A stretch of 64,000 nucleotides of DNA, taken from the NCBI GenBank assembly GCA_965214565.1, contig OZ243951.1:1281017-1345016 (forward strand). Direction: 5' to 3'. How positions within the stretch are numbered: the stretch's first letter is position 1; every line of letters starts with the position of its first letter. The notes beneath the pieces are model-generated. The model did not search any database. It was not told where the DNA came from and saw only the letters and a list, made by a program, of their open reading frames with translations. The stretch comes from Candidatus Aldehydirespiratoraceae bacterium (lineage in GTDB: Bacteria; Actinomycetota; Acidimicrobiia; Acidimicrobiales; Aldehydirespiratoraceae). Positions 32,501-48,641 of the stretch are shown here, in pieces. The translations under genes and the position numbers were made by a program.

Positions 32501-32770
32501 CGAATGGGGCTCAGCTGAGGGCTGGGCCTGCATGTTCCAGAGGATCTGTGCGGTCTCGCCCCGTGACACCGGCGCGTCCGGCGAGAAGCATGCACCGTCG
32601 AGGCCTGTGATCCCTTGGTCCACGGACCACTGGACCGCATTCGTGTAGTAGGTGTCTTCGCCCACATCGCCGTACCCGGCCACACCAGCCGCCGGCGAGC
32701 CCGAGACCATCAACGAGGCAGCTGCCAGGCTCAGCACCAACCCGCACAAACCAAGCAGTCGGAGCTTCAT
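29567..32770 (-). CDS. Secreted SLH-domain protein with 22 RCC1-like beta-propeller blades
   Basis: Signal peptide 'MKLRLLGLCGLVLSLAAASLMV' and three SLH-like segments ('FSPD..V.R.E.A.FLY'). I counted 22 repeats ending in 'CWG' ('HSCGLRTDGT(V/I)TCWG.N..GQ'). Confidence 0.85.
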   Translation of the reverse strand: MKLRLLGLCGLVLSLAAASLMVSGSPAAGVAGYGDVGEDTYYTNAVQWSVDQGITGLDGACFSPDAPVSRGETAQILWNMQAQPSAEPHSFTDVTVEPQNPAVSWMLEAGITTGTSATKFSPEKTLNRAELAAFLYRLAGEPEAGPHQFTDVVRDWRQAPVSWMFANGITNGTSATTFSPDTTLTRSHLITFLYRYQGEPEVTIDPQTPTCHPTLDDTPTTEIYSFKSVAAGTHHACGILTDDTLTCWGHNNVLQAEPPTGTFQGITAGGSHMCGLRTDNSVTCWGGNWHWQATSPTGRFDAVDAGLDHNCGLRTDGTIKCWGNNSRGQTTSPTGRFEAVSAGGGYYGGNGNHSCGLRIDGTVTCWGSNEHGQIDAPPGSFQAVSAGGLHSCGLRTDDTVTCWGNNAVGQSSAPPGSFKAVAAGSGWGHSCGLRIDGTVTCWGSNEHGQINAPPGSFQAVSAGANQTCGVRTDGTVTCWGYGFTRTTDAPAGSFKTLAADAHHTCAIRTDDTVTCWGNSDYGRTTAPTGSFKSASVNDRHSCGVRVDNSITCWGGNGFGQGDAPAGSFHSVSTGANFSCGLRIDGIVICWGEHISNQTNAPAFLFHSITTGRNHTCGIRTDGTLSCWGASPNGQTNARGGAYQAVDAGLAHSCGLRTNGVISCWGSNNNGQSDDPRGLFKAVTAGHDHSCGLRLNGTVHCWGSNWNGQTSAPTGTFRAIAAGGHHTCAIRDDATIICWGNNYSRERDISPVEFRAVAAGYGNTCAIRSDSTITCWGNNESGQSDAPEGSFQTVATGDFFSCGLRTDGTITCWGSDFNGETNAPAGTFQAVVTGAAHSCGLRTDGTVFCWGSDDFGETRHPPDLFTAVAAGLVHSCGLRTDSTITCWGGNDVLADVMDAEVNDAPEGSFQAVAVGDFFSCGLRTDGTITCWGVNDYFDIGRWMVAAPEGSFQAVSAGSAYWCGLRTDGTITCWGWNSDGQINAPSGLFQAVTSGDEHSCGLRLDNRVVCWGSNADGAINVPFDVPVDLLVDPAVDETPTDELHSFKSVAAGSDHTCGLRADGTVVCWG

Positions 32771-32867: not shown

Positions 32868-35800
32868 CTACGGGACGGTTACCTGGTCGCCGGATTGGGT
32901 GTTGGTGTCGTAGGTGGAGAGCACTTCGCCGGTGCAGCCGATGGAGTTGCAGGCGCTGACCTTGGCGACATAGGTGCCCGGGGCTAGGCCGGTGACGGTG
33001 TAGGTCTGGGTGCCGATCGCGACTGTCGTCTCGCCGCTGGAGCCTCGAGCCCCGGCTTGGGAGGGGAACCACCGCACCTTGTAGGTGGTGACGCCGTCGA
33101 GCCCCTGTCCGCCGGCTTCCCAGGTGATGACTTTGGTGTTGTCGGGTTCGCTGGCGGTTGCGTCGTTGATCCGCACGGCGACGATCGACACGTTGGTCGG
33201 GATGCCTGCCGTCTTGAGGATGGCGGCATACCCGGAGGTGCCCACGGACCCCGAGCGTGTCACGGCCCTGACCCTCACTTCGTAGCTCGCGCCGACTTCG
33301 AGGTCCTGGATCTGTGCGGTCAGCGCGCCGAGCGGGAAGTCGGTTCCTGCTGTTTCGCTGTCGCCGTCGACGGTCTGCCAGACGTGTGCAGGGTAGCGGA
33401 CGTCGGGTACTGGTCTGTCGGGGTCGGCGAGGCGACGGTACTGCACTTCGTATCCGGTGATCGGGGGTCCACCGTTGGTTTGGGTGACGGCGGACCAGCT
33501 GACCGTGAGTTGTGTGCCGTCTCCGGGTGTTCCGTCGCTGTTGACGGTCGCGGCGGCGGCGGTGACCGTTGCCGGCGCGGGCGGCACCGACGAGGTGAAT
33601 CCGCTGATCTCGTGGCTGTACCCGCTGCTGCCGACGGCGTTGACCGCGCGGATTATCACGAAGTAGTTGATGCCGTCTTTGAGTCCGGTGATGGTGTGGC
33701 GGTTGGCGGGTGCGTCGATCCGGATCTCGGATCCGAACTGGCCGCTGTCACCTTCTGCGTATCTGAGCAGGTAGTGGGTGATGGGTGTGCCGCCGTCGTC
33801 TGGCGGGTTCCAGGTCACGGTCAGCAGCCGGAATCCCGTCTCGATGTCGATGTTGGTTTTGGATTCGGTTTCGTCGGCACCGATGCTGGCGGGTTGTGTG
33901 GCCGGGGTTGCCGAGGTCTGGGCCCAGGGTCCGCCTTCGTTCGGGCTCGGGTCGGCCGTGGCGGCGTCGCCGTCGTGGTCGTTGGTTGCTCGGACTCGTA
34001 TGTCGAAGGAGACGCCTCGTCCGGTTGCGGAGCCGCTGCGACGGTCTTTGAGCCCGGTGATGGTGAAGCTTCGGGTGGCGATGTCGTTGGCTGCGAGGGT
34101 GACTTCGGTCCAGTCCCCTGCGCGTATTTCGTCGTTGGTGTCCAGTGAGGTTCGGGGCACGAAGGACTCTCGGTATTCGAGGACGTAGCCGAGCACTGGG
34201 CTGGTGCCGTTGGCGGCGGGCGGGTCCCAGGTGACGAGCAGCGATTCGGGGTCGACGACTGCTGACGTGTCGCCGGTTTCGACTGCTGGGGGCGGGCCTG
34301 CGGTGAGGTTGCGCGGGGCGTCGGGCACGGCCTTGGGTATCGCGGTCACTTCGGCTGAGGGTTGGCTCTTGCCGGAGGCGGATACTGCTTTGACCGACAC
34401 GGTGTAGCCGAAGCCGTTGGTGAGCCCGGTGATGGTTGTTGAGGTGACTGTGCCGGCGACGTTGATCTGTTCGGGTGCTCCGCCTGATGCGTAGGTGATT
34501 TCGTAACCGGCGATTGTGCTTCCGCCGGTGCTGGTGGGTGGGGCCCAGGTGACTTGCAGGGCTTGATGGGCGGACACGACTCCGTTTGCGTCCAGGGTCG
34601 GGGGTCCCGGTGGCTGTACGGGGGTGGCGGTGGCCGAGGCCCAGAGCCAGGGGGCCGTGGGGCTGGTCTTGATATTGACTGAGCGGACTCTCACCTCGCA
34701 GGGCTGTCCGTTCTCGAGTCCGGTGATGGTGATCGTGTAGGTCTCGGTCGGGACGTTGGGGACATCGACTCGGCCGGCCGGGTTGCCGGGGATTCCGCTG
34801 GTGACCCAGCCGGTGCTGCCGCTGCTGGTGGTGCAGTTGCGTTCGACTCTGTAGCTTTCGACGGGTTCGCCGCCGTCGTCTTGCGGGGCTCCCCATTTGA
34901 CGACGAGTTCTGTGCCTGAGGTTTCTGAGACGGTGACTGCGAGGTTCGTGGGCAGTCCGGGGGCGACCGTGTCGGGGCTGATCGGGTCGCCGTTGGGCGC
35001 GGGGGTACGGGGGCCTGCGCCGGCGGCGTTGATGGCGGTGATCCATACGTAGTACGCCGAGGGGTTGGCGGTGGTGGTGTTGCGCAGTCCGGTGATGGTG
35101 TGGGTGCGCGCGGCCGGGTCTGCGATTTCGTGTTGGGACGGCTCGACTCGGCGGTCGGCGGTCCATTGGACGAGGTATCCGGTGATGTCGCTGCCGCCGT
35201 CGTCGGTGGGTGCTTCCCAGGTGAGGGTCAGTTCGGTGTTGCCGGGTTGGGCGTTGAAGTTGCCGACCAGTCCTGGTGTGGTTGACGGGGTGCCTGTCGT
35301 GTCTGCCGACCATGGTCCGGTGCCTGTGGCGTTTATGGAGGCGACTCTGAGCGTGTATTCGGTGCCTTTGGTGAGGCCGGTGATTGTGGTTGTTGCGGTT
35401 GTGGTGCTCTGTTGTCGGGTTGTGGCGTAGTCTTGGTCGCCTGATTTCCACTGTACGACGTAACTCGTCACCGCGGTTCCTCCGCTGATGGCGGGCGGGG
35501 TCCAGGTCACGGTCAGTTCGGTGCCGTCTCCAGTCGGTTGGGCTGCGACGTCTGTCGGGGCTTGGGCTTTGGTGTTGACCAGTGCGCGGTAGAGGCGGGC
35601 GACGAACGATCCCATTTGTTCGCGTGTCACTCCGGCTCTCGGGGCGAAGGTTGTCGGTGTGGTTCCGGTGGTGACTTCTAGGCCGTAGATCTGGGCGATT
35701 GCTTTGCGCTGTTCGGATGAGCGCCGTCCGATGTCGATGAAGTTGGTGCTGACGACCGGAGGTTCGAAGCCTCTGATCGCTTTGTAGAGGCGCACTAGGA

Positions 35801-36338
35801 ACAGGGCCATGTGGGATCGCAGCACCGGGTCCTTTGGCGAGTATGTGGTGGTGGTGGTGCCGGTGGTGATCTTGAGTCCGTAGATGCGGGCTATGTCGTC
35901 GACGGCGAAGGAGTCTTCTGGTATGTCGGTGAAGGGTGTCTCGACTATTTCTGCTTCTGCGCCGGTGACTGCCCGATAGGTGCGGGCCATGAAGGCAGCC
36001 ATTTCTTCGCGGGTTACTTCTTCTTTGGGCCGATAGCGGTTACTCGACGGATTGGTGATGCCGAGCTCGACGAGGCAGCGGATGTCTTCGTAGGCGAAGC
36101 TGTTGGGGTCGACGTCGGCGAATTCCAGCGTGCCTTCGTCGGATGGGCAGGTGATCTCGCCGCTGTCGTCGGAGGAGTTGTCGGTGGTTTGCGCGGTGGC
36201 TGTGGTTGTGGCCAGCCCGAGCGAACCGGCGAGCATGATGGGGGCGACCGCTGCTCGCATGAGCCGTTGCAGGTTTGCCCGAGTCGTGCGTTTTGACATC
36301 GGTGCTCGCGGTGTCCTGTCGCTGGCTGCTGATCTCAT
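32868..36338 (-). CDS. SLH-Fn3 cell-surface protein, paralog D (full length, signal peptide)
   Basis: 1156 aa with signal peptide 'AAVAPIMLAGSLGLATTTATAQ' and three SLH segments. A long array of Fn3-like repeats follows ('L.V.W..P...GG..I.GY...'). Confidence 0.85.
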   Translation of the reverse strand: MRSAASDRTPRAPMSKRTTRANLQRLMRAAVAPIMLAGSLGLATTTATAQTTDNSSDDSGEITCPSDEGTLEFADVDPNSFAYEDIRCLVELGITNPSSNRYRPKEEVTREEMAAFMARTYRAVTGAEAEIVETPFTDIPEDSFAVDDIARIYGLKITTGTTTTTYSPKDPVLRSHMALFLVRLYKAIRGFEPPVVSTNFIDIGRRSSEQRKAIAQIYGLEVTTGTTPTTFAPRAGVTREQMGSFVARLYRALVNTKAQAPTDVAAQPTGDGTELTVTWTPPAISGGTAVTSYVVQWKSGDQDYATTRQQSTTTATTTITGLTKGTEYTLRVASINATGTGPWSADTTGTPSTTPGLVGNFNAQPGNTELTLTWEAPTDDGGSDITGYLVQWTADRRVEPSQHEIADPAARTHTITGLRNTTTANPSAYYVWITAINAAGAGPRTPAPNGDPISPDTVAPGLPTNLAVTVSETSGTELVVKWGAPQDDGGEPVESYRVERNCTTSSGSTGWVTSGIPGNPAGRVDVPNVPTETYTITITGLENGQPCEVRVRSVNIKTSPTAPWLWASATATPVQPPGPPTLDANGVVSAHQALQVTWAPPTSTGGSTIAGYEITYASGGAPEQINVAGTVTSTTITGLTNGFGYTVSVKAVSASGKSQPSAEVTAIPKAVPDAPRNLTAGPPPAVETGDTSAVVDPESLLVTWDPPAANGTSPVLGYVLEYRESFVPRTSLDTNDEIRAGDWTEVTLAANDIATRSFTITGLKDRRSGSATGRGVSFDIRVRATNDHDGDAATADPSPNEGGPWAQTSATPATQPASIGADETESKTNIDIETGFRLLTVTWNPPDDGGTPITHYLLRYAEGDSGQFGSEIRIDAPANRHTITGLKDGINYFVIIRAVNAVGSSGYSHEISGFTSSVPPAPATVTAAAATVNSDGTPGDGTQLTVSWSAVTQTNGGPPITGYEVQYRRLADPDRPVPDVRYPAHVWQTVDGDSETAGTDFPLGALTAQIQDLEVGASYEVRVRAVTRSGSVGTSGYAAILKTAGIPTNVSIVAVRINDATASEPDNTKVITWEAGGQGLDGVTTYKVRWFPSQAGARGSSGETTVAIGTQTYTVTGLAPGTYVAKVSACNSIGCTGEVLSTYDTNTQSGDQVTVP

Positions 36339-36506: not shown

Positions 36507-36570
36507 GTGACTTACGTGCGCCACCGTAACACCAAAACCATTCAGAGACTATCGAATCAGACCAACAGCG
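36507..36570 (+). repeat. Partial copy of the conserved leader element found upstream of the small coiled-coil genes
   Basis: 'gtgacttacgtgcgccaccgtaacaccaaaaccattcagagactatcgaatcagaccaacagcg' closely matches the reverse complement of about 47950-48020 and also 43085-43150. It ends 1 nt before the recombinase stop codon. Confidence 0.6.
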
Positions 36571-36571: not shown

Positions 36572-37633
36572 TTAGGAAGGAGGGAGTACGAAGTCTGCCC
36601 ATCGCTGCATCACTTCGCGCCTGCGCTCGATCAGGTCTGAGCGTTGGTAGCTTCTCTCGGTGCTGTTGCCGACGACGTGACCCAGACACGCTTCTGCGAG
36701 GTCACGTTCGAGGCCTTGGTCTGCGCAGTAGGTGCGGAATGTCGATCTGAGACCATGGGTGGTGCCTTCGCCGAGTATCTGCTTGCGGACTGTCCTCAAC
36801 GAGTCGCTGTTGATTGCCTGATGAGGGTTGCGTGAAGCAGGGAACACAAACTCAGAGTCTCCGAGCGACGCATGGAACCTGGCCCCGCTTGTCCCGTGTC
36901 CCTTCCCGTAGAGAAGTTCCATGGCTTGGTTGCTCAGCGGTACTCTGTGCTCTGTTCTCGTCTTCGTGCGCTCTGCGGGTACGGTCCAGGTCCTCTCTTC
37001 GCGATCGATCTCCTCCCAACGCGCTCCGCTGGCTTCTTTCGCCCTGGTGGCAGTCAGGAGAATGAACAGCAGGGCTCGCCCTGACCCTCCTTTGTCTCGC
37101 AGACGTGCCGAGAGTTGTTCAGCAACCTCTCGGGCCTCGGGCCAGGGTGTATAGGGATGATGAGTGGGCCTGTAGATCAAGTCTCGTCTCTTCATGCCGC
37201 GCATCACAGCAGAGCCGGCAGCAGGATTGGCTTCTATGGCTCCTGCGAGCATTGCTTCATCGAGGACTTCTCTAATGTTCGACAGAATCTTCTTCGGAAC
37301 GCTGATTCCACCGTTTTTCGAGGCCGCGAGGGCATCGAGGACGTGACCCAGCGTTATGGTCTCGATGGGCATTGACCACAACGTTCCGGCATAGGTCCGC
37401 ATCCTTACTTCCCATTCTGTCCGCGTCTTCTCGGCACATACCTTGACGGCGAGGGTGTGAGTCGCCCACGATCCGAAGGTGCCTGACTCAGGAGCGGACT
37501 CAGGGACTTCTTGATTGTCGGTTGGGGCCGTATCGCGCTCCGTCATTGCGCCCGATGGGGGTCGCTGGCCTTCACTGAAGGCATGCCTTCCATTTGGCAG
37601 ATTCTCAATATCTGTCCATTGTTTTGCTACCAT
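36572..37633 (-). CDS. Tyrosine site-specific recombinase (phage-integrase family)
   Basis: 353 aa. Catalytic signature residues are present: R in 'LLTATRAKEAS', K in 'TKTRTEHRVPL', HxxR in 'HGLRSTFRT', H in 'CLGHVVG' and Y in 'ERSYQRSD'. SD 'aaggag' lies 7 nt before the ATG. Confidence 0.85.
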   Translation of the reverse strand: MVAKQWTDIENLPNGRHAFSEGQRPPSGAMTERDTAPTDNQEVPESAPESGTFGSWATHTLAVKVCAEKTRTEWEVRMRTYAGTLWSMPIETITLGHVLDALAASKNGGISVPKKILSNIREVLDEAMLAGAIEANPAAGSAVMRGMKRRDLIYRPTHHPYTPWPEAREVAEQLSARLRDKGGSGRALLFILLTATRAKEASGARWEEIDREERTWTVPAERTKTRTEHRVPLSNQAMELLYGKGHGTSGARFHASLGDSEFVFPASRNPHQAINSDSLRTVRKQILGEGTTHGLRSTFRTYCADQGLERDLAEACLGHVVGNSTERSYQRSDLIERRREVMQRWADFVLPPS

Positions 37634-37690
37634 ATTGTGCTCCTTCTGGGAGGTATCCGGTAATCAACACCAATACCTAAAGCAGCGTTC

Positions 37691-40600
37691 ATGGCGAACG
37701 CCTACGCGGCGCTCACTGGGATGGAGGCACCGGTCGAGGAGCACATGTTCGAAGATGTTGAGGGTGACCCCAACGCTGATGACATTGCTCGTATCAGCCC
37801 GAACGGGCTTGAGATCACGACGGGCACGTCGGCTACGACGTATTCGCCGGGTGACCCTGTGCTTCGCGGGCACATGGCTCTGTTCTTGACACGTCTGTAC
37901 AAGGCGGTGACGGGTGAGGACGCTCCGGCGGGCGACACTCCGTTCACCGACATCGGCGACCGTCCCGACTCGGAGCAGGCCGCGATCGGTTCGCTGTTCG
38001 AGTTGGAGGTCACGCGGGGCACTTCGACTACGACGTATTCGCCGCACAGCAATGTGACACGCGAGCAGATGGCTTCGTTTGTTGCTCGTATGTATCGGGC
38101 GATTGATGAGATGCCTGATCCAACTGAGGCACCGGGAGCTCCGACCGGTGTCATGGCAACACCGCACGGCACCGCAGGTACAGCGCTCGAGGTCACTTGG
38201 TCCGCCCCCGAAGACTCGGGCACCAGTGATGTCACTGGTTATGTCGTGCAGTGGGGTGCCGACTACAACAGCCAGCAGACCACCTCGGAAACCTCAGCCG
38301 CGATCTTCGGCCTCACCAAGGGCATGGACTACAGCGTCCGTGTAGCGGCGGTGAGCGACGACGGCCAGGGCGAGTGGGCGATGGCTACCGGCACGCCGGG
38401 CACCACGCCAGGGATGGTCTCCGATCTCAGGGCAGAACCTGGTGCGAGTCCCGGGACTATCAATGTCATGTGGACCGCACCCGCGGACGATGGTGGCACT
38501 CCGCTTACCGGATACATGATTCTGTGGGCTCAAGGCAACAACGAGCAGCAGTCCATGACGATCAGCAATCCAGGCGCTACCAGTTACACCCTCAGTGGAC
38601 TGAACAGCGCGGGGCTCTACTACGTGTGGGTCAAAGCAGTCAACGGTGCTGGCGACGGCGAAGCCTCCGCTGCCGCCTCAGCCACCCCGACCGGGAACGT
38701 TCCAAGCGGAACCGTCAAGGTCAACCCAACCAGCGGCAACGACGCCGGAAAGCGCTTCGCGTCGATGAGTTGGCCAACCGTGACAGCCAAAGCCGGTCAG
38801 GGTCTGGACAACTACACAATCCAACGCAAGTGCGGAAGCCAACTGTGGCCAGACGCAATCATCCCCAATGACGTTTCTCGTATTGTCATGCAGGATGCTG
38901 TCACCACCGCTGCCAACCAGGTACTCCCTGTAGACCATGCCTTGCTCGGCGGACCAGTCGGATCGGGCACGCTGATCAACGGGGTTGAGTGCACCTACCG
39001 AGTCCGAGCCAACGTCTACACTAATACAAACGGCAATGATCGCCAGGATTCCGGCGAGCCGAACGTAGGTGTGTGGGTTGAAGGCAAAGCCACACCAGCG
39101 GCCTCCACAGCGGCACCCGCTCCAGGGGTCGATGTGGTTCCAGCGGCCCCAGAGGGTGTAGGCGTTATCGCAGGTAACCGGACCATGCAGGTCAACTGGA
39201 CCCTCGTACCCGCCACGAGCCAGGGTACCGGTGGTTCGATCAGCGGATACAGGGTTACCTTGTTCTCGCCGTTCCCAGTGCCCGTGGCTTCCGTAACTGT
39301 CAGTGCTATCACCGAATCACACATGTTCACGGGCCTGACCAACGGTTGGACATACACCGCTAACGTCGTCGCTCTTAACCCCAAGGGCGCTGGCGCTTCG
39401 AACGATGTCACCGCGCAGGCTGCCATGGGGATCCCCGGGGCCGCGCAAGGCGCGCCGACCAACGTGCGTGTCACGCAAGGCACGACACGGGGCACAACGT
39501 TGAAGGTCGCCTGGAACGCTCCAGCGGCTAACAGCCTCGCAACAGTGACCGGCTACACCTTGCAGTGGCGTATCTCAGCCACCGCGAGAGCCGCCGCCGG
39601 TGGTTGGGCAGACACCTCGACCACGCCACCGGGTGGGGAATTGATGCCAACATCGGCCATGGTTGAAGTTGCAGGGCTCACCGCAGGTACGTCCTACGAC
39701 TTCCGGGTCCGGGCCACAGGCACCAGGCCTAATCCGGACTCGCCTGGAAGTACCCTCGATGCGACCGGTCCTTGGAGCGCCGTTGCTTCAGGAGCAGCCA
39801 CAGGTTTGCCCGCAGCAGCCACCAACGTTGCGGTGACCGGAAACGACGGCTCGTTGACTCTGGCGTGGACTCCCGCCGACGGTAACGGTTCGGATGTCAC
39901 CAGCTACTCGCTGGTGTACCGCCGTAACGCAGGTGAAGGTTACAACCCGCCGAACACCGTTAGCGTGCCTGCGTCATTGTTGCCGACCAAGACCATCACG
40001 GGACTGACGAACGGTGTCGAATACGAGATCCTTATTACGTCACGCAACGCAAATGGTTCTTCACAGCAACCGGCGAAAACAACAGGCACGCCTGAGGGCG
40101 GAGGCGGTAGCCTCGCAGCTCCGTCCTCGGTAAAGGCGACGGTGGTGCCCGTTGTGAACGCTGACGGCACGATTGGTAGCAACGCGCAGATCAACGTCAG
40201 TTGGAACGCGGTCTCACGAGCTACTGGCTACACCGTCCAATTCCTGCCGGTGCTTAGTAATGCTACTCCACCAGTCCCTGGTAATCCCGCCGACGACAAT
40301 TGGTCATCTGATGGCGTGATGATCGTGCCCAGGACGACCACTGCCGTCATCACCGGTTTGGCATATGACGCCACCTATGTGGTGCGGGTGCGAGCAGCAA
40401 CGCCGCAAGGTCGATGGGGATTCTCGGCGGCGGCTAGAACCGAAAGCGCGCCATCGACAGCACCAAGTGTGAGTGTTGTAAATATTGCTGGAACAACAAC
40501 GCTGCGAGTCAACTGGACTTCGCTCAACGCAATGGATTCCCGGACCCAAGGGGTCACCGGTTACAAGGTGTCTTGGGGACCAACCGAACCAACGGTTCCC

Positions 40601-40774
40601 GGTAACCGCGGTACTGCAACGGTTGCGGCGCCGGCCAATGCCGGAAGCGGGATGCCGATGAGCTACGACATAACCGGGCTCACCGCTATCGGCCAGCCAA
40701 TCCGGGTGACTGTCGCAGCAGTCAACAAGATCGGTGCAGGTGCCCAAGGCATGGGCACCTACCCGTCGTCATAA
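37691..40774 (+). CDS. SLH-Fn3 cassette A: 5'-truncated copy (no promoter-proximal region, signal peptide or first SLH domain)
   Basis: The ORF begins at the internal Met of 'FMANAYA' of paralog C, with no SD upstream. The first 156 aa differ from cassette B at only 4 positions, then a divergent Fn3 array follows. It is probably a silent cassette. Confidence 0.75.
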   Translation: MANAYAALTGMEAPVEEHMFEDVEGDPNADDIARISPNGLEITTGTSATTYSPGDPVLRGHMALFLTRLYKAVTGEDAPAGDTPFTDIGDRPDSEQAAIGSLFELEVTRGTSTTTYSPHSNVTREQMASFVARMYRAIDEMPDPTEAPGAPTGVMATPHGTAGTALEVTWSAPEDSGTSDVTGYVVQWGADYNSQQTTSETSAAIFGLTKGMDYSVRVAAVSDDGQGEWAMATGTPGTTPGMVSDLRAEPGASPGTINVMWTAPADDGGTPLTGYMILWAQGNNEQQSMTISNPGATSYTLSGLNSAGLYYVWVKAVNGAGDGEASAAASATPTGNVPSGTVKVNPTSGNDAGKRFASMSWPTVTAKAGQGLDNYTIQRKCGSQLWPDAIIPNDVSRIVMQDAVTTAANQVLPVDHALLGGPVGSGTLINGVECTYRVRANVYTNTNGNDRQDSGEPNVGVWVEGKATPAASTAAPAPGVDVVPAAPEGVGVIAGNRTMQVNWTLVPATSQGTGGSISGYRVTLFSPFPVPVASVTVSAITESHMFTGLTNGWTYTANVVALNPKGAGASNDVTAQAAMGIPGAAQGAPTNVRVTQGTTRGTTLKVAWNAPAANSLATVTGYTLQWRISATARAAAGGWADTSTTPPGGELMPTSAMVEVAGLTAGTSYDFRVRATGTRPNPDSPGSTLDATGPWSAVASGAATGLPAAATNVAVTGNDGSLTLAWTPADGNGSDVTSYSLVYRRNAGEGYNPPNTVSVPASLLPTKTITGLTNGVEYEILITSRNANGSSQQPAKTTGTPEGGGGSLAAPSSVKATVVPVVNADGTIGSNAQINVSWNAVSRATGYTVQFLPVLSNATPPVPGNPADDNWSSDGVMIVPRTTTAVITGLAYDATYVVRVRAATPQGRWGFSAAARTESAPSTAPSVSVVNIAGTTTLRVNWTSLNAMDSRTQGVTGYKVSWGPTEPTVPGNRGTATVAAPANAGSGMPMSYDITGLTAIGQPIRVTVAAVNKIGAGAQGMGTYPSS

Positions 40775-40909
40775 GTAATACCAAGATGTAGTCGGCTGGC
40801 TCCTGGGCTCTCCGCCGGGCCCAGAGAGCCGCTGGCTACTTAGCTGCAATTGCAACTAAGCATTAGTTCAGAGCCCGAGGTCTTGGCCTCGGGCTCTAAC
40901 TATTTTTCC
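40775..40909 (+). repeat. Conserved ~135-bp 3' element shared by cassettes A, B and C
   Basis: It starts right at the stop codon: 'gtaataccaagatgtagtcggctgg...cttagctgcaattgcaactaag...agagcccgaggtcttggcctcgggctct...ttttt'. Near-identical reverse-complement copies lie at 44099-44236 and 49684-49816. Confidence 0.8.
40870..40907 (+). terminator. Putative intrinsic terminator of cassette A
   Basis: 11-bp stem 'agagcccgagg'/'cctcgggctct' with a 6-nt loop, then 'aacta' and 'ttttt'. Confidence 0.45.
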
Positions 40910-41133
40910 CACGCTCCAACCCTCCACCATGTATTGGAGACCGACCCGGCAGGCCACAAGAACCCACCGGCAAGCGCAGACTTCCAACTCAGCGAAGCGG
41001 ATGCTGGTTTGGCAACAGAAAGTGCGGTCAGGTTCGATCGTCGGCTCGACGGCAAGGAAGACCCCGCCCGCTGCCCCTCACCCGAGTTCGACGGGGCCAG
41101 CCACGACAAGTTCTCCGCGCACAGCTCCTTGAG

Positions 41134-41206
41134 CGCTCCAGGCTGTCCGATCGTGTCGGTGAGGCTGCTGTGGATATCGGTTCGCTGCTGTTCTGTCAGG
41201 ACCAGG
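41134..41206 (-). pseudogene. 5' remnant of a type-2 small coiled-coil gene
   Basis: It encodes 'LVLTEQQRTDIHSSLTDTIGQPGA', matching the N-termini of the 42621-43040 and 48073-48513 products. Homology then stops and the GTG start is replaced. Confidence 0.45.
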
Positions 41207-41212
41207 TTGGTT

Positions 41213-41405
41213 CCCCCGTCCAATCCACCTGGTCGATTCAGGGGGCAAGTGGTGTACGAGCCTCACCGTAGCACCAAAACTATTCAGAGGCACTCGAATC
41301 AAATAAGAGCAGCCGACGCGCCGTCTGGGGTGGTACGGTGGAGGCACTCGCTGGGCAATGGCGACAACTTCCCTTCACAAGCAGCGACAACGAAGGGAAC
41401 TTGCC
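41213..41405 (+). promoter_or_regulatory. Conserved ~190-bp leader/promoter element, copy 1
   Basis: 'ccgtccaatccacctggtcgattcaggggg...caccgtagcaccaaaactattcagagg...aatggcgacaacttccc...acgaagggaacttgcc' directly precedes the ATG at 41406. Confidence 0.55.
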
Positions 41406-41813
41406 ATGGCGGCAGGCGAGCAGGAGCGTTTTGAGCTCCTCAACAGTTTGATCGAAGCGCTCGGGGAGGATGTGGCCTACAAACTCATGAACTCACTACC
41501 CCCATTCTCCTGGGACCAGGTCGCTACCAAAGAAGACCTCAACACACTGGCCACAGCGATCACCGCGAAGTTCGACCAAGTCGACGCACAATTCAAGTCC
41601 GTCAACGCACAGTTCGAGATGGTTGCGGCGGAGTTCGTGAACCTGCGCGGAGAGATCGCCAAAGAGGTCGCAGGTCTATCGACCAAGATCGGCGTGCTCG
41701 ACAGCAGCTTCTCCAAGAAGATCACCGACCAGACCCGAATCATGGTGACGATGATCGCCGGGTTCTCGTTATCCGTGTGCGCAGCCATGGCCGGCGGCAT
41801 CCTCTTCGCCTGA
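41406..41813 (+). CDS. Type-1 small tail-anchored coiled-coil protein (DUF1640/CCDC90-like by resemblance)
   Basis: 'MAAGEQERFELLNSLIEALGED...WDQVATKEDLNTLA...AQFKSVNAQFEMVAAEF...' with a C-terminal TM 'MVTMIAGFSLSVCAAMAGGILFA'. SD-like 'gaaggg' lies upstream. Confidence 0.65.
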   Translation: MAAGEQERFELLNSLIEALGEDVAYKLMNSLPPFSWDQVATKEDLNTLATAITAKFDQVDAQFKSVNAQFEMVAAEFVNLRGEIAKEVAGLSTKIGVLDSSFSKKITDQTRIMVTMIAGFSLSVCAAMAGGILFA

Positions 41814-41838
41814 CACCCGACCGGAGGGCCGGGGACTG

Positions 41839-42029
41839 CCCATCCAATCCGTCTGGTCGATTCAGGGGAAAGTGGATTACAGGCATCACCGTGACACCAA
41901 AGCCATTCAGAGGCCCCCGAATCAAATTACAGCTGCCAACACACTTTCTTGGTGATACGGTACGGGGTACTCGCTGCGCAATGGCGACAACTTCCCTCCA
42001 CAAGCAGCTACAACGAAGGGAACCTTGCC
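41839..42029 (+). promoter_or_regulatory. Conserved leader/promoter element, copy 2
   Basis: 'cccatccaatccgtctggtcgattcaggggaaagtgg...caccgtgacaccaaagccattcagagg...' precedes the ATG at 42030. Confidence 0.55.
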
Positions 42030-42500
42030 ATGACGGCAGGCGAGCAGGAGCGATTCGGGCTCCTCAACAGTTTCATCGAAGCGCTCGGAGAGGAAGCGGC
42101 CCACAAATTCATGGATGTCCTACCCCCATTCTCCTGGGACCAGGTCGCAACCAAAGACGACCTCAACGCCCTAGCCACGTCGATCACCGCGAAGTTCGAC
42201 CAAGTCGACGCACAATTCAAGTCCGTCAACGCACAGTTCGAGTCGGTCAACGCACAGTTCGAGATGGTCAACGCACAGTTCGAGATGGTTGCGGCGGAGT
42301 TCGTGAACCTGCGCGGAGAGATCGCCAAGGTCGAGGGCAACCTCGCCAAAGAGATCGCAGGGCTCTCGACCAAGATCGGTGAACTCGACAGCAGCTTCTC
42401 CAAGAAGATCACCGATCAGACTCGAATCATGGTGACGATGATCGCCGGGTTCTCGTTGTCCGTGTGCGCAGCCATGGCCGGCGGCATCCTCTTCGCCTGA
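42030..42500 (+). CDS. Type-1 small tail-anchored coiled-coil protein (longest heptad array)
   Basis: 'MTAGEQERFGLLNSFIEALGEE...' with four tandem 21-bp units at 42210-42293 (FKSVNAQ/FESVNAQ/FEMVNAQ/FEMVAAE). The C-terminal TM is identical to the 41406 copy. Confidence 0.65.
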   Translation: MTAGEQERFGLLNSFIEALGEEAAHKFMDVLPPFSWDQVATKDDLNALATSITAKFDQVDAQFKSVNAQFESVNAQFEMVNAQFEMVAAEFVNLRGEIAKVEGNLAKEIAGLSTKIGELDSSFSKKITDQTRIMVTMIAGFSLSVCAAMAGGILFA

Positions 42501-42620
42501 TACCCGACCGGAGGCCAGTGGACTGCTAATGGTCCCAGACATCGGGATCAGGGCCCCTCTTGGGTGGCGTAGATGCGCCAGCCGAGGAAATGGGGCTCTT
42601 CGGTGCGGGGAGACGAAGCC

Positions 42621-43040
42621 TCAGACGGCTAGGAAGATCGAGCCGCAGATGGAGACGGTCATCACCGCGATTGCCACGGCGAACCCCCAAACCTCTCTGC
42701 TGCGTCTTTCGGACAATTCGGCGAATCGCGTGTCGACCTTCGCGAATCGGGTGTCGATCGCCGCGAATCGGGTGTCGATCGCCGCGAACTGCTTCTGGAT
42801 CTCCGCGAACTGCTCTGCGAGTTGTTCGCGGAGCTGCGCGAACTGGACATCCATCTTGGCGTTGAGTGCGACGAATCCAGCCTGGGTCTTGGTCTCGAGG
42901 TCTGCGAGGTCGCGTTTGGTGGCGAACTGTTCCCATCCTCCTGGTGGTTGCTGTGCCATTAGGAATTCCGCTTCCGGCTGCCCGATCGTGTCGGCAAGGC
43001 TGCTGTAGATGTCGGTTCGCTGCTGTTCTGTCAGGGCCAC
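42621..43040 (-). CDS. Type-2 small tail-anchored coiled-coil protein
   Basis: GTG start, 'MALTEQQRTDIYSSLADTIGQPEAEF...ATKRDLADLETK...FAAIDTRFAAIDTRFAKVDTRFAELSER' and a C-terminal TM 'AVAIAVMTVSICGSIFLAV'. Confidence 0.65.
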   Translation of the reverse strand: MALTEQQRTDIYSSLADTIGQPEAEFLMAQQPPGGWEQFATKRDLADLETKTQAGFVALNAKMDVQFAQLREQLAEQFAEIQKQFAAIDTRFAAIDTRFAKVDTRFAELSERRSREVWGFAVAIAVMTVSICGSIFLAV

Positions 43041-43241
43041 TTCGGTCCCCCATCCAATCCGTCTGGTTGATTCTGGGGGAAGTGGCTAACGGGGGCCACC
43101 GTAACACCAAAGCCATTCAGAGACAACCGAATCAGACCAACAGCGCTCAACGCACCGTACGGATGATACGGTACGGGGGTACTCGCTGCGCAATGGCGAC
43201 AACTTCCCTCCACAAGCAGCTACAACGAAGGGAACCTTGCC
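43041..43241. promoter_or_regulatory. Conserved leader element, copy 3 (divergent intergenic region type-2 <-> type-1)
   Basis: A 201-bp spacer between divergent starts at 43040 and 43242. It is near-identical to the reverse complement of 47873-48072. Confidence 0.6.
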
Positions 43242-43635
43242 ATGACGGCAGGCGAGCAGGAGCGATTCGGGCTCCTCAACAGTTTGATCGAAGCGCTCGG
43301 AGAGGATGCGGCCCACAAACTCATGGATGCCCTACCTCCAGTATCTTGGGATCAGGTCGCAACTAAAGACGACCTCAACGCCCTGGCCACAGCGATCACC
43401 GCGAAGTTCGACCAAGTCGACGCACAATTCAAGTCCGTCAACGCACAGTTCGAGTCGGTCAACGCACAGTTCGAGATGGTTGCGGCGGGGTTCGTGAACC
43501 TGCGCGGAGAGATCGCCAAAGAGGTTGCGGGGATATCCAAGAAGATCACCGACCAGACTCGAATCATGGTGACGATGATCGCCGGGTTCTCGTTATCCGT
43601 GCGCAGCCATGGCCGGCGGCATCCTCTTCGCCTGA
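43242..43635 (+). pseudogene. Type-1 small coiled-coil gene with 2-bp deletion frameshift in the TM-coding end
   Basis: '...ttatccgtgcgcagccatgg...' here versus 'ttatccgtgtgcgcagccatgg' in the 41406 copy. The frame therefore runs on to 43982 and the ancestral stop lies at 43633-43635. Confidence 0.6.
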
Positions 43636-43688
43636 CCAACACCGGCTTGCGGTTCTTTGAGAGGCGATATGCTCCGCGGGCACCGCGT

Positions 43689-43832
43689 TGCCTCGACGCC
43701 CCAAAGAACCACGGATCGTTTGTGCACATCACGCTCCATCGGCAAAGTCTCGTTCTCCCGCAACCGCACCAACTCAGCGCGCTCATCGGTGCTCAACCCA
43801 CCAGCACGTTCGGCGACATCGCGGCGCATCCA
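43689..43832 (-). mobile_element. Remnant of an IS3-family transposase OrfA
   Basis: The minus-strand translation 'WMRRDVAERAGGLSTDERAELVRLRENETLPMERDVHKRSVVLWGVEA' resembles the leucine-zipper/frameshift region of IS3 OrfA (...ELxRLRxENxxLxxERDILKKAxAFF). No intact transposase or terminal repeats are seen. Confidence 0.45.
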
Positions 43833-43842
43833 ATTCCCCACG

Positions 43843-44091
43843 TCGATCACTGCGAAGTTCGACCAAGTCGCCGTCCAGTTCACCGCGGTGGCGGCAGAGC
43901 TCGTGAGCGAGCGCGGAGAATTCGCCAAAGTCGAGGGCAACCTCACCAAAGAGATCGCAGGGCTATCGACCAAGATCGGTGAACTCGACAGCAGCTTCTT
44001 CGAAAGGACCCCCGAACAGACCCGAACCTTGATACTGATGTTGGCGGGCTTCTCGGTGGCCGTGTGCGCCACCATGGTGCTTTCTGGTTGA
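43843..44091 (+). pseudogene. 3' fragment of a divergent type-1 small coiled-coil gene
   Basis: 'ITAKFDQVAVQFTAVAAELVSERGEFAKVEGNLTKEIAGLSTKIGELDSSF...LAGFSVAVCATMVLSG'. The 5' part is replaced by the IS3 scrap. Confidence 0.45.
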
Positions 44092-44098
44092 GGGGGTC

Positions 44099-44236
44099 AG
44101 GAAAAATAGTTAGAGCCCGAGGCCAAGACCTCGGGCTCTGAACTAATGCTTAGTTGCAATTGCAGCTAAGTAGCCGGCGGCTCGCTGGGCCCGGCGGAGA
44201 GCCCAGGAACCAGCCGACTACATCTTGGTATTTTCC
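44099..44236 (-). repeat. Conserved 3' element of cassette B
   Basis: Reverse complement of the 40775-40909 element with few mismatches. Confidence 0.8.
44102..44139 (-). terminator. Putative intrinsic terminator of cassette B
   Basis: Stem 44112-44122/44129-44139 ('agagcccgagg'/'cctcgggctct') and a T-tract on the minus strand (44102-44106). Confidence 0.45.
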
Positions 44237-47200
44237 TTACGAGGCTGGGATCGCTTCGGCCGTGGCCACAATTCCCCCGCTCGCACCGACAGAGTTCAGT
44301 GCATGCAAGCGCACTGAGTATATATTCCCCGGCGTAAACGAGATACCAGTGATTACGTACGAACCGGACGTTCCATCGGGGATAGTTGCCACGCCTGTAT
44401 CACCTGGCGCTCCGGCCACACTCGGGAACCAATGGAGCCTGTAGCCGCCGGTCAACGCCTTAGCAGCGTCACCCGACAGTGCAGTCCAAGTGACCTTCAG
44501 TCCCTTAGCGGTTGCGTCGTAGGCAACTTCGAGCCCGGAGGGCGAAGCCGGAACAGCAGTGGCTGTCACCTTAGCCGAATACCCGTAACTACCAACGACG
44601 TTTGCCATAGCGGCAACTCGCACGTAGTAATCGGAGCCTGCCGTCAAATCACTGATTTCGCCCTTCGTGACATTGTTGGAGCAAGTCTCGGTCGCTTCGG
44701 TGGTAGCTAAGTCGCAGTTGAGAGTGGCGGCACCCCATGTGAATCCGTCTGATGATGTCTCCGCAACATAAACCATCAGTGGTCCACCACCGTTGCTGGC
44801 AGTGACCCTCGACCAAGTGACGGTCAGAGCTGATCCATCACCGTCCTTCTTGGACACGGCCGTCACATTTGAAGGTGCGGACGGAACGCCACCGGTGGCG
44901 GCACTTGGATCCTGAATGCCCTCTGCGGAGCCATCGGCGTCATGGTACGGACCGGTACCAATTCCGTTCACGGCACGAACCTGCACAACATAGTTCGTGT
45001 CTGCTCTAAGGCCCGTCAAGACATGCACGAGAGGCGACTTGGAAGCATCGACACGGATGTCTGAACTCCAACGCCCTTGGTTAGTCGTGGCATCTGCGTA
45101 CCGCAGGAGATAGTGGGTTACCTTTGACCCGTTGTTCTCCGCAGGGCTCCAGTTCACGGTCAGAGATCTGTAACCGGTAGCAAGGTTGATCGTTGCCACT
45201 GCGGACGGAACAGTCGCAGGAGTAGCGCTAACCGTCGCATATGGTCCACCAGGATCAAGCTGTACCCCATCCGTATCCGGGTCAGAATCGTTCACCGCTT
45301 GAACCCGTACGTCGTGTGGTACGCCTTTGGGTAAACCGGTGATTGTCACTTTCGTTGTGCTCGCAGTGATCGGACTCGCTGCAGGTTCCGTCGTAGCAGA
45401 AGCCCAGTCACCAGCAGGTGTATCCGCGGCACCGTTCATGCCGGGTATAAACGATGTCCGCTGCTGCACCCTATAGCCCGTGACTGCCGAGGTGCCATTG
45501 TTCGGAGGAGCGCTCCACGAGACATCAAGGCTCGTAGCTCGGTCAGCGTTTGGAGTGGTCCCGTCGGCCTCAAATGCTGGAGGTACAACCACACGCAAAT
45601 TGGTTGGAGCAGCAGGAACCTGAGCGGGCGAACCCGATGCCGCGTCCGAAGCCGGGCTGTCACCGTTCGCGTTGACTGCTTTGACCGTAACGCTGTACGT
45701 GAAACGCTTGTCTAGACCAGTCAATGTGCGAGTCGTGGTATCAGCACCAACTGAGACCGTGGTTGAAGGCCCACCAGAGCTGTAGCTCACCTTATAACCC
45801 GTGACAGCGCTGCCTCCGTCGTTGGCCTTGCTCGATGCGGTCCACGAGACCTGTAGCGAGTTATTGGCCACACCTATCATTGGCGTAGCTGGCTTGTCGG
45901 GGACGGTACTCGGAACAATTGAAGCTTTGGCTGCATCGCTCAAGCCGGTGTCGGACGAGGTGTTAGATGCCAAGTTGTCGGCTCGAACCTCTACCTCGAG
46001 GGTGTCGCCGTAATTCGCTGCCGGCACTGGTATAGGTGACGATGAAATCACTGCTGTAAGCGGATCTGGCAAAATCACATTAGTCCACGTATCGCCAGTA
46101 GGAACCCAATCACCGGCACTGCCAGTCTCGCGGTCTTTGAACCTGTGGCGGATCTCGTAGTTCTCAATGTCACGACCGCCGGTATCGGATGGTTCGGACC
46201 AGCTAGCTGTCACACTTACAGCACCATCCGCCGCGACCATCTGAGCCAGCTTGAGGCCGCTCGGTGCAGTCGATTTCCCGGTGGTGGGTGTTGTGTTTGC
46301 TCCAGGGTTCACCGAAGCTGGATCACCAGCACCAACTGCGTTCATTGGTGTGACTGTGACCAAGTATTGACCTTCGTTCTTCTTCAACGTGATGGTGTAA
46401 CCCAAGGCATCGCCTTCAGCTTCAGCCATTTCTCCGCCCTCACGGCCAGAACGCCACTCAACGGTGTAACCGGTAACCGTGCTGCCGCCGTCATCGGGGG
46501 CATCCCAGGTGACCGAAAGCGTCTTGTTGCCAGCAGTTACCTTGAGGTTGCTCACCGCGCCTGGCACCGTCGCTGGTGTGCCGGAGGCTTCGTCGGACCA
46601 GTCGCTTTGGCCGTCGTCGCTCATTGCGGCGACACGGAACATGTACGTCATGCCCTTGGTGAGACCATCGAACATCGACATCATGCCGTCCACTGAACGC
46701 TGATTGTCCTCAGAGTAGTCATCATCGCCGGACTTCCACTGAACGACATAACCAGTCACATCCGAAGTGCCGCTGTCCTCAGGAGCCATCCAAGACACAT
46801 CAAGCGCGTCACCATCGTCGCCGCTGACCGCAGCCATGACACCGGTCGGAGCTCCCGGTGCCTCAGTTGGATCAGGCATCTCATCAATCGCCCGATACAT
46901 ACGAGCAACAAACGAAGCCATCTGCTCGCGTGTCACATTGCTGTGCGGCGAATACGTCGTAGCCGAAGTACCCCGCGTGACCTCCAACTCGAACAGCGAA
47001 CCGATCGCGGCCTGCTCCGCGTCGGGACGGTCGCCGATGTCGGTGAACGGAGTGTCGCCCGCCGGAGCGTCCTCACCCGTCGCCGCCTTGTACAAGCGTG
47101 TCAAGAACAGAGCCATGTGCCCGCGAAGCACAGGGTCACCCGGCGAATACGTCGTAGCCGAGGTGCCCGTCGTGATCTCAAGACCGTTCGGGCTGATTCG

Positions 47201-47455
47201 TGCAATGTCGTCAGCGTTGGGGTCACCCTCAACATCTTCGAACATGTGCTCCTCGACCGGCGCCTCCATCCCAGTGAGCACCGCGTAGGCGTTCGCCATG
47301 AACCCGCTGAGATGGCACTCAACGCTTTCCTGCTGGCCGTGCACCAACGTTTCGCGACGTGTCCGACGGTTACAGGTCCCTCGGACCATTCTCTCGGCTG
47401 GCGAATCTACGCGACCCAAGCGGGTCTCGATCCCGAAGTCTGGGGCCTTCAGCAC
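44237..47455 (-). CDS. SLH-Fn3 cassette B: 5'-truncated copy; homology to C starts at 47302, upstream 51 codons are unrelated
   Basis: The ORF N-terminus 'MLKAPDFGIETRL...ECHLSGF' has no signal peptide and no paralog match. From 'MANAYAVLTG' onward it is near-identical to C for about 250 aa (46548-47302 versus 52199-52960), then diverges. Confidence 0.75.
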   Translation of the reverse strand: MLKAPDFGIETRLGRVDSPAERMVRGTCNRRTRRETLVHGQQESVECHLSGFMANAYAVLTGMEAPVEEHMFEDVEGDPNADDIARISPNGLEITTGTSATTYSPGDPVLRGHMALFLTRLYKAATGEDAPAGDTPFTDIGDRPDAEQAAIGSLFELEVTRGTSATTYSPHSNVTREQMASFVARMYRAIDEMPDPTEAPGAPTGVMAAVSGDDGDALDVSWMAPEDSGTSDVTGYVVQWKSGDDDYSEDNQRSVDGMMSMFDGLTKGMTYMFRVAAMSDDGQSDWSDEASGTPATVPGAVSNLKVTAGNKTLSVTWDAPDDGGSTVTGYTVEWRSGREGGEMAEAEGDALGYTITLKKNEGQYLVTVTPMNAVGAGDPASVNPGANTTPTTGKSTAPSGLKLAQMVAADGAVSVTASWSEPSDTGGRDIENYEIRHRFKDRETGSAGDWVPTGDTWTNVILPDPLTAVISSSPIPVPAANYGDTLEVEVRADNLASNTSSDTGLSDAAKASIVPSTVPDKPATPMIGVANNSLQVSWTASSKANDGGSAVTGYKVSYSSGGPSTTVSVGADTTTRTLTGLDKRFTYSVTVKAVNANGDSPASDAASGSPAQVPAAPTNLRVVVPPAFEADGTTPNADRATSLDVSWSAPPNNGTSAVTGYRVQQRTSFIPGMNGAADTPAGDWASATTEPAASPITASTTKVTITGLPKGVPHDVRVQAVNDSDPDTDGVQLDPGGPYATVSATPATVPSAVATINLATGYRSLTVNWSPAENNGSKVTHYLLRYADATTNQGRWSSDIRVDASKSPLVHVLTGLRADTNYVVQVRAVNGIGTGPYHDADGSAEGIQDPSAATGGVPSAPSNVTAVSKKDGDGSALTVTWSRVTASNGGGPLMVYVAETSSDGFTWGAATLNCDLATTEATETCSNNVTKGEISDLTAGSDYYVRVAAMANVVGSYGYSAKVTATAVPASPSGLEVAYDATAKGLKVTWTALSGDAAKALTGGYRLHWFPSVAGAPGDTGVATIPDGTSGSYVITGISFTPGNIYSVRLHALNSVGASGGIVATAEAIPAS

Positions 47456-47476
47456 TCCCCAGTCTTGGTTCGGGTG

Positions 47477-47872
47477 TCAGGCGAAGAGGATCCCGCCGGC
47501 CATGGCTGCGCAGACGGCTAGCGAGAACCCGCCGATCATTGTCACCATGATCCGAGTCTGGTCGGTGATTTTCTTGGATATGCCCGCGATCTCTTTGGCG
47601 ATCTCTCCGCGCAGACTCACAAACTCCGCAGCCACCATCTCGAACTTCGCGTTGACCGACTCGAATTGTGCGTTGACGGACTTGAATTGTGCGTCGACTT
47701 GGTCGAATTTCGCGGTGATCGCTGTGGCCAGCGTGTTTAGGTCGTCTTTAGTTGCGACCTGATCCCAAGATACTGGAGGTAGCGAGTCCATGAGTTTGTG
47801 GGCCACATCCTCTCCGAGCGCTTCGATCAAACCGTTGAGGAGCTCAAAACGCTCCTGCTCGCCTACCGCCAT
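47477..47872 (-). CDS. Type-1 small tail-anchored coiled-coil protein
   Basis: 'MAVGEQERFELLNGLIEALGED...FKSVNAQFESVNAKFEMVAAEF...MVTMIGGFSLAVCAAMAGGILFA'. I prefer the ATG at 47872, which sits behind the same leader as the other copies. Confidence 0.65.
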   Translation of the reverse strand: MAVGEQERFELLNGLIEALGEDVAHKLMDSLPPVSWDQVATKDDLNTLATAITAKFDQVDAQFKSVNAQFESVNAKFEMVAAEFVSLRGEIAKEIAGISKKITDQTRIMVTMIGGFSLAVCAAMAGGILFA

Positions 47873-48072
47873 GGCAAGTTCCCTTTCGTTGTAGTAGCTG
47901 GTGGAGGGAAAGTTGTCGCCATCGCGCAGCGAGTACACGCACAATATCATCCGCACGCCGACTTGGGCGCTATTGGTCTGATTCAATCGTCTCTGAATGG
48001 TTTTGGTGTTACGGTGACGCCGGTAAGTCACTTCCCCCCGAATCGACCAGACGGATTGGATGGGGTACCGAA
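47873..48072. promoter_or_regulatory. Conserved leader element, copy 4 (inverted relative to copy 3)
   Basis: A 200-bp divergent spacer between starts at 47872 (-) and 48073 (+). Confidence 0.6.
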
Positions 48073-48513: not shown

Positions 48514-48641
48514 GGTCCCCGCAACCGCAGCCAGAGCTTTCGGTTACAGGCGGAATGTCTAGGCGGAGGCTACTGACACAATGCCGACGTATAGTATGTC
48601 ATTAGACCGACGTAAACCTAGACGAGGAAGGACGATTACAG

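Follow-up and report, generated by a model that had tools for sequence, protein, structure and literature searches.

The stretch analysed here, called the window, covers 64,000 nucleotides of contig OZ243951.1 (assembly GCA_965214565.1) from a bacterium of Ca. Aldehydirespiratoraceae (Acidimicrobiales), and it carries a family of large genes for cell-surface proteins next to a tyrosine integrase gene (Table 1). One of these, gene C, is the full-length expressed copy, whose product possesses three SLH repeats and seven FN3 (fibronectin-III) domains. Two further copies, cassettes A (37691-40774, plus strand) and B (homology from 47303 down to 44237, minus strand), share the architecture of C minus its first ~103 codons. 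Both are promoterless, the upstream region and the 5' 310 nt being unique to C, and both keep full-length open reading frames (ORFs; about 1027 and 1022 codons) with all domains present. A fourth and more distant full-length copy, paralog D (32868-36338, minus strand), lies beyond the integrase. The evidence described below marks the locus as a switch of the inversion type for a cell-surface protein that is anchored by SLH domains and rich in FN3.

Each cassette is composed of a 5' homology block of ~470 nt reaching to the end of SLH3 (the arm), a body with 30-60% nucleotide identity between cassettes, and a 3' block of ~135 nt. The 3' block begins at the stop codon, ends sharply after the terminator and is 98-100% identical among the cassettes. 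It contains three hairpins including the terminator (z = -6.5), and no Rfam family matched it or anything else at 36-54 kb; it could anchor a double-crossover replacement of cassettes. Cassette A is oriented opposite to B and C, which are direct to each other, and inverted repeats are formed between A (plus) and C (minus; 470 nt at 91% identity) and between A and B (471 nt at 97%). With an expressed gene, promoterless partial copies and an inverted repeat all present, the locus has the gene arrangement of a shufflon-type inversion system. Paralog D, the sharply bounded ~135-nt 3' block and the position of the homology edge within codons of SLH1 had been overlooked by an earlier reading of the window, made from its letters and a list of its open reading frames (the sequence-only reading).

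Table 1. Features of the cassette locus, with positions in the window, strand and basis of assignment
Feature	Position	Strand	Basis
Tyrosine integrase, 353 aa, P4-like	36572-37633	-	Pfam Phage_integrase + Phage_int_M
Spacer between integrase start and cassette edge: ribosome-binding site (CCTTCTGG on plus strand), conserved block ACCTAAAGC flush with edge	37634-37684	.	five-genome alignment
Edge motif of A: GCGTTCATGGCGAACGCC, imperfect palindrome	37685-37702	+	sequence, motif search, inverted-repeat search
A 5' homology block (arm): remainder of SLH1 through SLH3	37687-38157	+	inverted repeats I1, I2, identity profile, SLH match
A variable body, seven FN3; 30-60% nt identity to B and C	38158-40774	+	
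A 3' block: stop codon, three hairpins, terminator; 98% identical to B and C blocks	40775-40909	+	
B 3' block	44100-44236	-	
B body: first ~300 nt C-like (83-95%), remainder unique	44237-46832	-	repeat D8, identity profile
B 5' homology block, 97% identical to that of A	46833-47303	-	repeat I1
Inverted scrap at B junction: CATGAACCCGCTGAGATGGC; matches codons DMTRSEMA preceding the edge in full-length genes, opposite orientation	47298-47319	+	
B unique flank; beyond 47386 matches spacer downstream of another small-gene copy (42497-42593)	47320-47385	.	
C 3' block	49683-49816	-	repeats, identity profile
Full-length expressed gene C, 1150 aa: signal peptide, SLH1-3, seven FN3	49817-53269	-	ORF + Pfam
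C 5' homology block; inverted vs A (91%), direct vs B	52491-52960	-	repeat I2, identity profile
Edge motif of C: GCGTTCATGGCGAATGCC, codons A-F-M-A-N-A	52940-52957	-	sequence, motif search
C part found at the expression site only: start codon, signal peptide, first half of SLH1; not in A or B	52961-53269	-	

Three-way alignment of A, B and C places the first sequence common to all at GTTCATGGCGAA, with no similarity upstream and near-identity from there onward. The junctions read ...aaagcagcGTTCATGGCGAACGCC in A, ...ctcagcggGTTCATGGCGAACGCC in B and ...atggcggcGTTCATGGCGAATGCC in C (the last two on the minus strand), with the G of GTTCATGG at 37687, 47303 and 52955, respectively, and the two bases just 5' of the edge (GC) are also common to A and C. 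Identity calculated in 60-nt windows jumps at the edge from background to 96-100% for A-B and ~91% for A-C and B-C. The abrupt common start of homology described by the sequence-only reading is thereby confirmed, as are the A, B and C sequences that it quoted. When one mismatch at most was allowed, the 18-mer GCGTTCATGGCGAACGCC occurred in the window at the three edges only, and with three mismatches allowed there were 5 matches against 0.16 expected.

The edge falls within the SLH domain 1 codons A-A-F-M-A-N-A-Y (AAFMANAY), and the search for an inverted core site that the sequence-only reading had proposed found an imperfect palindrome exactly there, GCGTTC-ATGGC-GAACGC, with GCGTT-CATGGCG-AACGC as an alternative reading (edge-motif sequences are also given as GATGGCGGCGTTCATGGCGAACGCC and ACCTAAAGCAGCGTTCATGGCGAACGCC). 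In A it is the sole perfect inverted repeat with 6-bp arms located at the junction; such repeats occur about once per 325 nt in the window, and the chance of one lying no more than a few bases from a given point is a few percent. The palindrome is a plausible core for the integrase, though not the sole point of crossover, in a setting that includes an adjoining conserved non-coding half-site, the conserved integrase, an exchange at the edge in a relative and the joint of B, all described below. A metagenome scan for the edge motif gave no new junctions, returning one contig with a full-length gene and one chance match. A second palindrome, CGGTGT-CATGGCA-ACACCG, occurs at the inner end of the A arm (38146-38164) and has the same central CATGGC, and B has a 7-nt CATGGCT patch at 46833-46845 amid otherwise C-like sequence. 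As a second core site this palindrome is unsupported: it is missing from C and from the other genomes, and its CATGGC is a local variant of a different FN3 type. The patch in B may be the mere end of a conversion tract.

The integrase has Pfam matches to the catalytic domain (PF00589, E 6e-16) and the central domain (PF22022, E 5e-9), and its catalytic residues are visible in alignment. No record of the exact sequence of the window integrase was found. Its closest homologs (83-85% identity) are proteins of 412 aa with the domains Arm-DNA-bind_3, Phage_int_M and Phage_integrase, as in P4-like island integrases, and the orthologs of 412-422 aa all carry the arm-type DNA-binding domain (PF13356). 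Comparison with the orthologs gave dN/dS values of 0.11-0.28 at dS 0.3-0.66 with intact reading frames, and the integrase gene is therefore kept by selection. A relative with 42% identity belongs to an ordinary mobile island that has a primase-polymerase gene and is free of SLH genes, which suggests that the SLH-linked clade of integrases has been domesticated. A 64-nt piece of the intergenic region of the small genes described below (36507-36570) adjoins the integrase stop codon in the window; contig OZ242337.1 of the closest relative has the whole gene pair at this place.

The integrase ATG lies at 37633 (minus strand) behind a GAAGGAG ribosome site, and 51-53 bp separate it from the first shared base. 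The short gap noted by the sequence-only reading is real, whereas its figure of 57 bp runs to the ATG in TTCATGG. That reading was right to place the integrase promoter in or beyond the junction, as only ~53 bp with a conserved ribosome-binding site are available; a sigma-70 promoter scan of the spacer found none, the consensus being uninformative for this phylum. In an alignment of five genomes the ribosome site and the ACCTAAAGC block are kept and the rest of the spacer has diverged. This block is part of two to three tandem ACCTAN hexamers beside the edge in four relatives (three copies in two of them, two in the others), which may be protein-binding repeats. They occur at L084 6076-6097, L083 9972-9992, L082 17641-17652 and L004 9942-9953, and in the window, whose integrase is without the arm-type domain, one good hexamer and one degenerate copy are found (37669-37680).

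Alignment of the junction with those of relatives revealed that the integrase-cassette junction, ...ACCTAAAGCnnC followed by GTTCATGGCGAAC, is the same in seven genomes: the window, L082 (= L001), L002 (= L007), L004, L078, L084 (= L080) and L083. In all seven, the integrase and a 5'-truncated cassette are divergently transcribed at a distance of 51-70 bp, and the cassette, whose first base is always the same, is inverted with respect to a full-length gene. The A edge is therefore one ancestral junction inherited vertically rather than the product of independent decay. Truncated cassettes were found only beside the integrase in the loci examined, with B of the window as the sole exception. A protein search with the arm alone gave short fragments only, and other candidate truncated proteins (P0126 and others) turned out to come from full-length genes interrupted by a stop or frameshift. 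An ISL3 element cuts the integrase of the closest relative (OZ242337.1), and no truncated cassette was present in the two loci inspected around it.

Three of these genomes, G1 (L082, assembly ERZ25069191), G6 (L084, ERZ25068966) and G7 (L083, ERZ25070985), are very close to each other, with integrase dS of 0.01-0.03. G6 is collinear with G1 in the luciferase-like gene, the superoxide dismutase gene, the 5' part of the expression site and the side of the integrase; the 7 kb in the centre, with a full-length paralog (F1) and a cassette body (X), is inverted. Body X forms part of an 1180-aa full-length gene in G1 and occupies the silent slot beside the integrase in G6 (P0152, 1071 aa, 96% identity) and G7 (98% over 6.8 kb). 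An inverted centre together with relocation of body X is the pattern that would be expected of an inversion switch which has changed state within very little divergence. The small ORFs between the cassettes are not orthologous across genomes and were of no use for reading orientation.

As ~13% of sites differ between the expressed and silent arms of G1 (~87% identity), the two arm types can be told apart and exchange points located. In the silent copy of G6, the first ~375 nt are of the silent-site type, the change to the X type falls at 375-393 nt and further patches extend to ~750 nt; the expression site of G6 has kept the other arm type for ~445 nt. In G7, the first site that distinguishes the arms lies 16 nt from the edge, and from there the silent copy is of the other arm type, right up to GTTCATGGCGAACGC; this would agree with an exchange at the edge or with conversion extending to the very end of the homology. 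In the window, B is a chimera in which an A-like arm (97%) is followed by ~300 nt of C-like sequence (83-95%), with the switch ~470 nt in from the edge. Concerted evolution of the arms is seen as well, with 91-100% identity within genomes against 70-85% between genomes, and L002 has a perfect run of 434 nt starting exactly at GCGTTCATGG where G1 has a run of ~50 nt from the edge. Homologous recombination and gene conversion are thus clearly at work on the block. The proposal of the sequence-only reading that the edge is a crossover site can therefore be kept in part: a palindrome lies at the edge and one exchange is within 16 nt of it, but the exchanges in G6 and in B of the window lie inside the block, where that reading would have looked for RecA-type exchange. 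A site-specific event at the edge is plausible, though not as the only recombination route of the locus.

The edge of B has a different history from that of A. Its flank is unrelated to the A flank, and its unique part amounts to about 82 nt only. The inverted 9-mer described by the sequence-only reading is real and extends to a 10-mer, CTGAGATGGC (47307-47316, plus; 52959-52968, minus), within a longer inverted match of CATGAACCCG--CTGAGATGGC against CATG-ACCCGTTCTGAGATGGC (~21 nt, 19 identities, two small gaps), a score equalled by only 3e-4 of random 60-mers from the window. A caveat is that the window holds five copies of CTGAGATGGC, where 0.2 would be expected; three lie away from the cassettes (4343, 13818 and 15643), and two of these are overlaps of a ribosome site with a stop and start (GGAG..TGAGATG). 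In full-length genes the scrap is flanked by CATGA and TCATG, and a single inversion between these two reproduces the scrap and its joint with the arm. Such an inversion does not yield the sequence 5' of the scrap, and it was rejected as the origin of B as a whole. The B edge is therefore a true joint of a rearrangement, located at TCATGG or a few bases from it. The argument of the sequence-only reading, that two decay events would hardly hit the same base and that the shared truncation point marks a recombination junction, thus holds insofar as the edge is shared, recombination-related and not due to two independent decays; what must be changed is that the A edge is inherited, being the same in six other genomes, and that B, with its scrap of ~21 nt, is the only independent junction.

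Taken as a mechanism, when the ~470-bp block of the expressed gene recombines with the inverted block of a silent cassette, the intervening DNA would be flipped and a different FN3 body set behind the fixed 5' part of C. The start of A would be the ancestral junction of silent cassette and integrase, and the arm of B a recent copy of the A arm that acquired its new flank when a secondary rearrangement took place at TCATG/CATGA, a short palindrome. We infer that the P4-derived tyrosine integrase catalyses the inversion, most likely by acting on the edge palindrome GCGTT-CATGGCG-AACGC as its core; ordinary homologous recombination and gene conversion act along the whole block in addition. We regard this combination as evenly balanced between being right and wrong.

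A number of observations weigh against it. The window integrase has an in-frame gap of ~59 aa after a shared N-terminus of 22 aa, by which the arm-type DNA-binding domain (PF13356, no Pfam match) is lost, and the enzyme may be impaired as a result. P4-type integrases normally integrate and excise islands, and we know of none that serves as an invertase. The palindrome is made up of the conserved codons A-F-M-A-N-A, so that its presence is not specific evidence, and it is also found in full-length paralogs of genomes with no integrase seen nearby. Two of the three mapped exchange points (G6 and window B) are far from the edge, and the third, in G7, is read from the silent copy alone, its expression-site partner being unseen. 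G6 is a 14x long-read assembly with frameshifts, and polishing errors could account for part of the mosaic in its arms. The window itself is a single sequence, and both orientations are known from the relatives only (G6 vs G1, with body X expressed or silent). Lastly, L006 has two full-length paralogs with arms 97% identical and no integrase in view.

Several of these points, together with the positions of exchange in G6 and in B and the patchy mosaics, would be accounted for if switching were purely homologous (RecA-type) through the ~470-bp inverted repeats, as in the sap system of Campylobacter fetus. The edge would then be no more than the end of the truncated copy, and the integrase a bystander or a gene with another role. 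The concerted arms, among them the perfect run in L002 and the paralogs of L006, agree with this, as does the window integrase lacking one domain, and the 3' blocks, which are homogenised too, fit a double-crossover or conversion-type replacement of cassettes. What such a mechanism leaves unaccounted for is an intact integrase under purifying selection 51-70 bp from a silent cassette in seven genomes, the coincidence of the B edge with the A edge, and the exchange in G7 within 16 nt of the end of homology. Homology-dependent crossover needs a minimal pairing length, and the flanking homology at the G7 edge should be too short for it. The arms of G1, at ~87% identity, would also be a poor substrate for RecA, yet these close strains differ by an inversion. 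We consider purely homologous switching unlikely, if still the strongest competitor of an integrase acting at the edge.

An improbable third reading joins the two processes: a domesticated P4-family integrase would control variation of the surface protein by nicking or cutting the SLH1 palindrome at the edge, inverting cassettes and seeding homology-directed repair, with conversion tracts running from the edge to variable depth; between the directly repeated edges of B and C it may also excise cassettes as circles and re-insert them. Runs of identity that begin at the exact edge and end at variable depth (L002 and G1) are in keeping with such a process, as are exchanges located at the edge in one case and within the block in others, the conservation of both long arms and recombinase, and the direct orientation of B and C. 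This evidence is indirect throughout and would also be expected if the other two models were combined, cassettes in circular or excised form were not seen, and we know of no precedent for a tyrosine integrase initiating homologous repair in this way.

The most doubtful of these readings is that there is no programmed switch at all, A and B being decaying pseudogene fragments, the integrase the defunct remnant of an island once inserted in an SLH gene, and the inversions sporadic accidents. In its favour, the integrase belongs to a family typical of islands, has a deletion in the window and is cut by ISL3 in the closest relative, with no truncated cassette in the two loci inspected there, and the region is rich in repeats and insertion sequence (IS) elements. 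Against this, A and B have full-length reading frames with all domains, unexpected for pseudogenes with bodies that differ by 40-70% of nucleotides. Seven genomes have retained the inverted orientation, the same edge and the shared 3' block, purifying selection acts on the integrase, strains at integrase dS of 0.01-0.03 are already in different inversion states, and no tRNA gene or direct-repeat partner marks an island.

Two other arrangements were rejected. An integrated element, with the integrase and an attR having displaced the 3' part of a target gene, does not describe the present state, as the partners in each of the seven genomes are inverted, with tRNA gene and island cargo both lacking; an integron is argued against by cassettes that are gene fragments starting mid-domain, by a 3' block that is a terminator-type triple hairpin with no Rfam match, and by an integrase that is P4-like by Pfam (an IntI-specific test was not part of the analysis). 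The 64-kb window has no tRNA gene, and it shows neither island cargo nor a direct-repeat att pair. Of the edge motif's partners, that in C is inverted and that in B is part of another cassette, and in relatives the flanks consist of collinear chromosomal genes. The integrase is thus like those of P4-type islands in its domain family and visible catalytic residues, and it differs from them in these absences, in being fixed beside a chromosomal cassette in seven genomes and, for the window copy, in being without the arm-binding domain.

Among known surface-layer systems, the sap locus of C. fetus has several S-layer cassettes with a conserved 5' block of several hundred bp, brought under one promoter by inversion; all homologs there are complete, the promoter itself is inverted, no recombinase is linked and the process is RecA-dependent. 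The present locus resembles it in the conserved 5' block, in homology-dependent exchange and in placing different cassettes under one promoter. It differs in that the promoter-proximal 310 nt occur once only, in C, and the silent copies are truncated, so the arrangement of a sap-type system was not found. In Lactobacillus acidophilus, an inverting slp segment lets the S-layer genes slpA and slpB change places (Boot et al., 1996, reviewed in PMC3666127). The locus described here likewise has a surface-layer protein of Gram-positive type, active and silent genes inverted a few kb apart and a single expression site, but it has three cassettes rather than two, a break inside the coding region (SLH1), an integrase adjoining the silent cassette and N-terminal SLH repeats as anchoring domains.

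The locus was also compared with shufflon-type systems, namely the R64 Rci shufflon, Type I hsdS switches, Mycoplasma pulmonis vsa/HvsR and Bacteroides SusC/D switches, as covered by a survey (PMC9881135) in which SLH-domain proteins are among the families enriched near predicted programmed inversions. With these it shares one expressed gene accompanied by promoterless, 5'-truncated inverted copies, an adjoining recombinase gene, a 3' coding part swapped by inversion and copies whose homology starts abruptly at a fixed point. Differences are found in the recombinase, here a P4-like integrase with arm-domain relatives and a putative role rather than a small dedicated invertase, in the long (~470 bp) concerted repeats with exchange points spread along them, and in the host, an uncultured member of Acidimicrobiales.

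A number of other features occur around the cassettes. Two families of small genes with variable 21-nt tandem repeats, whose products are coiled-coil proteins with a membrane helix at the C-terminus, are present at 40900-44100 (plus strand) and 47470-48515 (inverted). Their divergent pairs occur many times over and enclose cassette B as an inverted repeat, and neither family has a Pfam match. Between B and C, a small ORF (48642-48977, plus strand) has an Xre/MbcA/ParS antitoxin C-terminal domain and is probably part of a toxin-antitoxin pair. Beside paralog D lies the gene of another envelope protein (29567-32770, minus strand; 1067 aa) with three SLH repeats and 22 RCC1_2 repeats, and it is these last that give rise to DNA repeats with a period of 111 nt. 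An AT-rich direct repeat of 62 nt (92% identical) is found at 26370-26431 and 28141-28202, and one of 70 nt (77% identical) at 58732-58801 and 60464-60533. In OZ242337.1, the ~4.4-kb stretch 58139-62533 of the window is replaced by an extra full-length inverted SLH-FN3 gene (L005 1170-4860).

Loci of this type are prone to mis-assembly and mis-annotation in metagenome-assembled genomes, and the silent cassettes get called as proteins of ~1030-1070 aa starting at the internal Met of FMANAY. The related genomes show the locus in nature before and after a switch, and evidence of this kind is rare for uncultured organisms. If a hybrid of site-specific and homologous recombination were indeed at work, it would be undescribed for S-layer-type proteins. 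The linked recombinase would be a domesticated island-type integrase and not a classic invertase, and the locus would extend the switching of envelope-protein cassettes by DNA inversion to Acidimicrobiales, a widespread uncultured environmental lineage of actinobacteria. The FN3 bodies share only ~50% protein identity between genomes whose flanks are ~90% identical in nucleotides, and such hypervariability suggests that these surface proteins may be under strong diversifying pressure, for example from phages or grazers.

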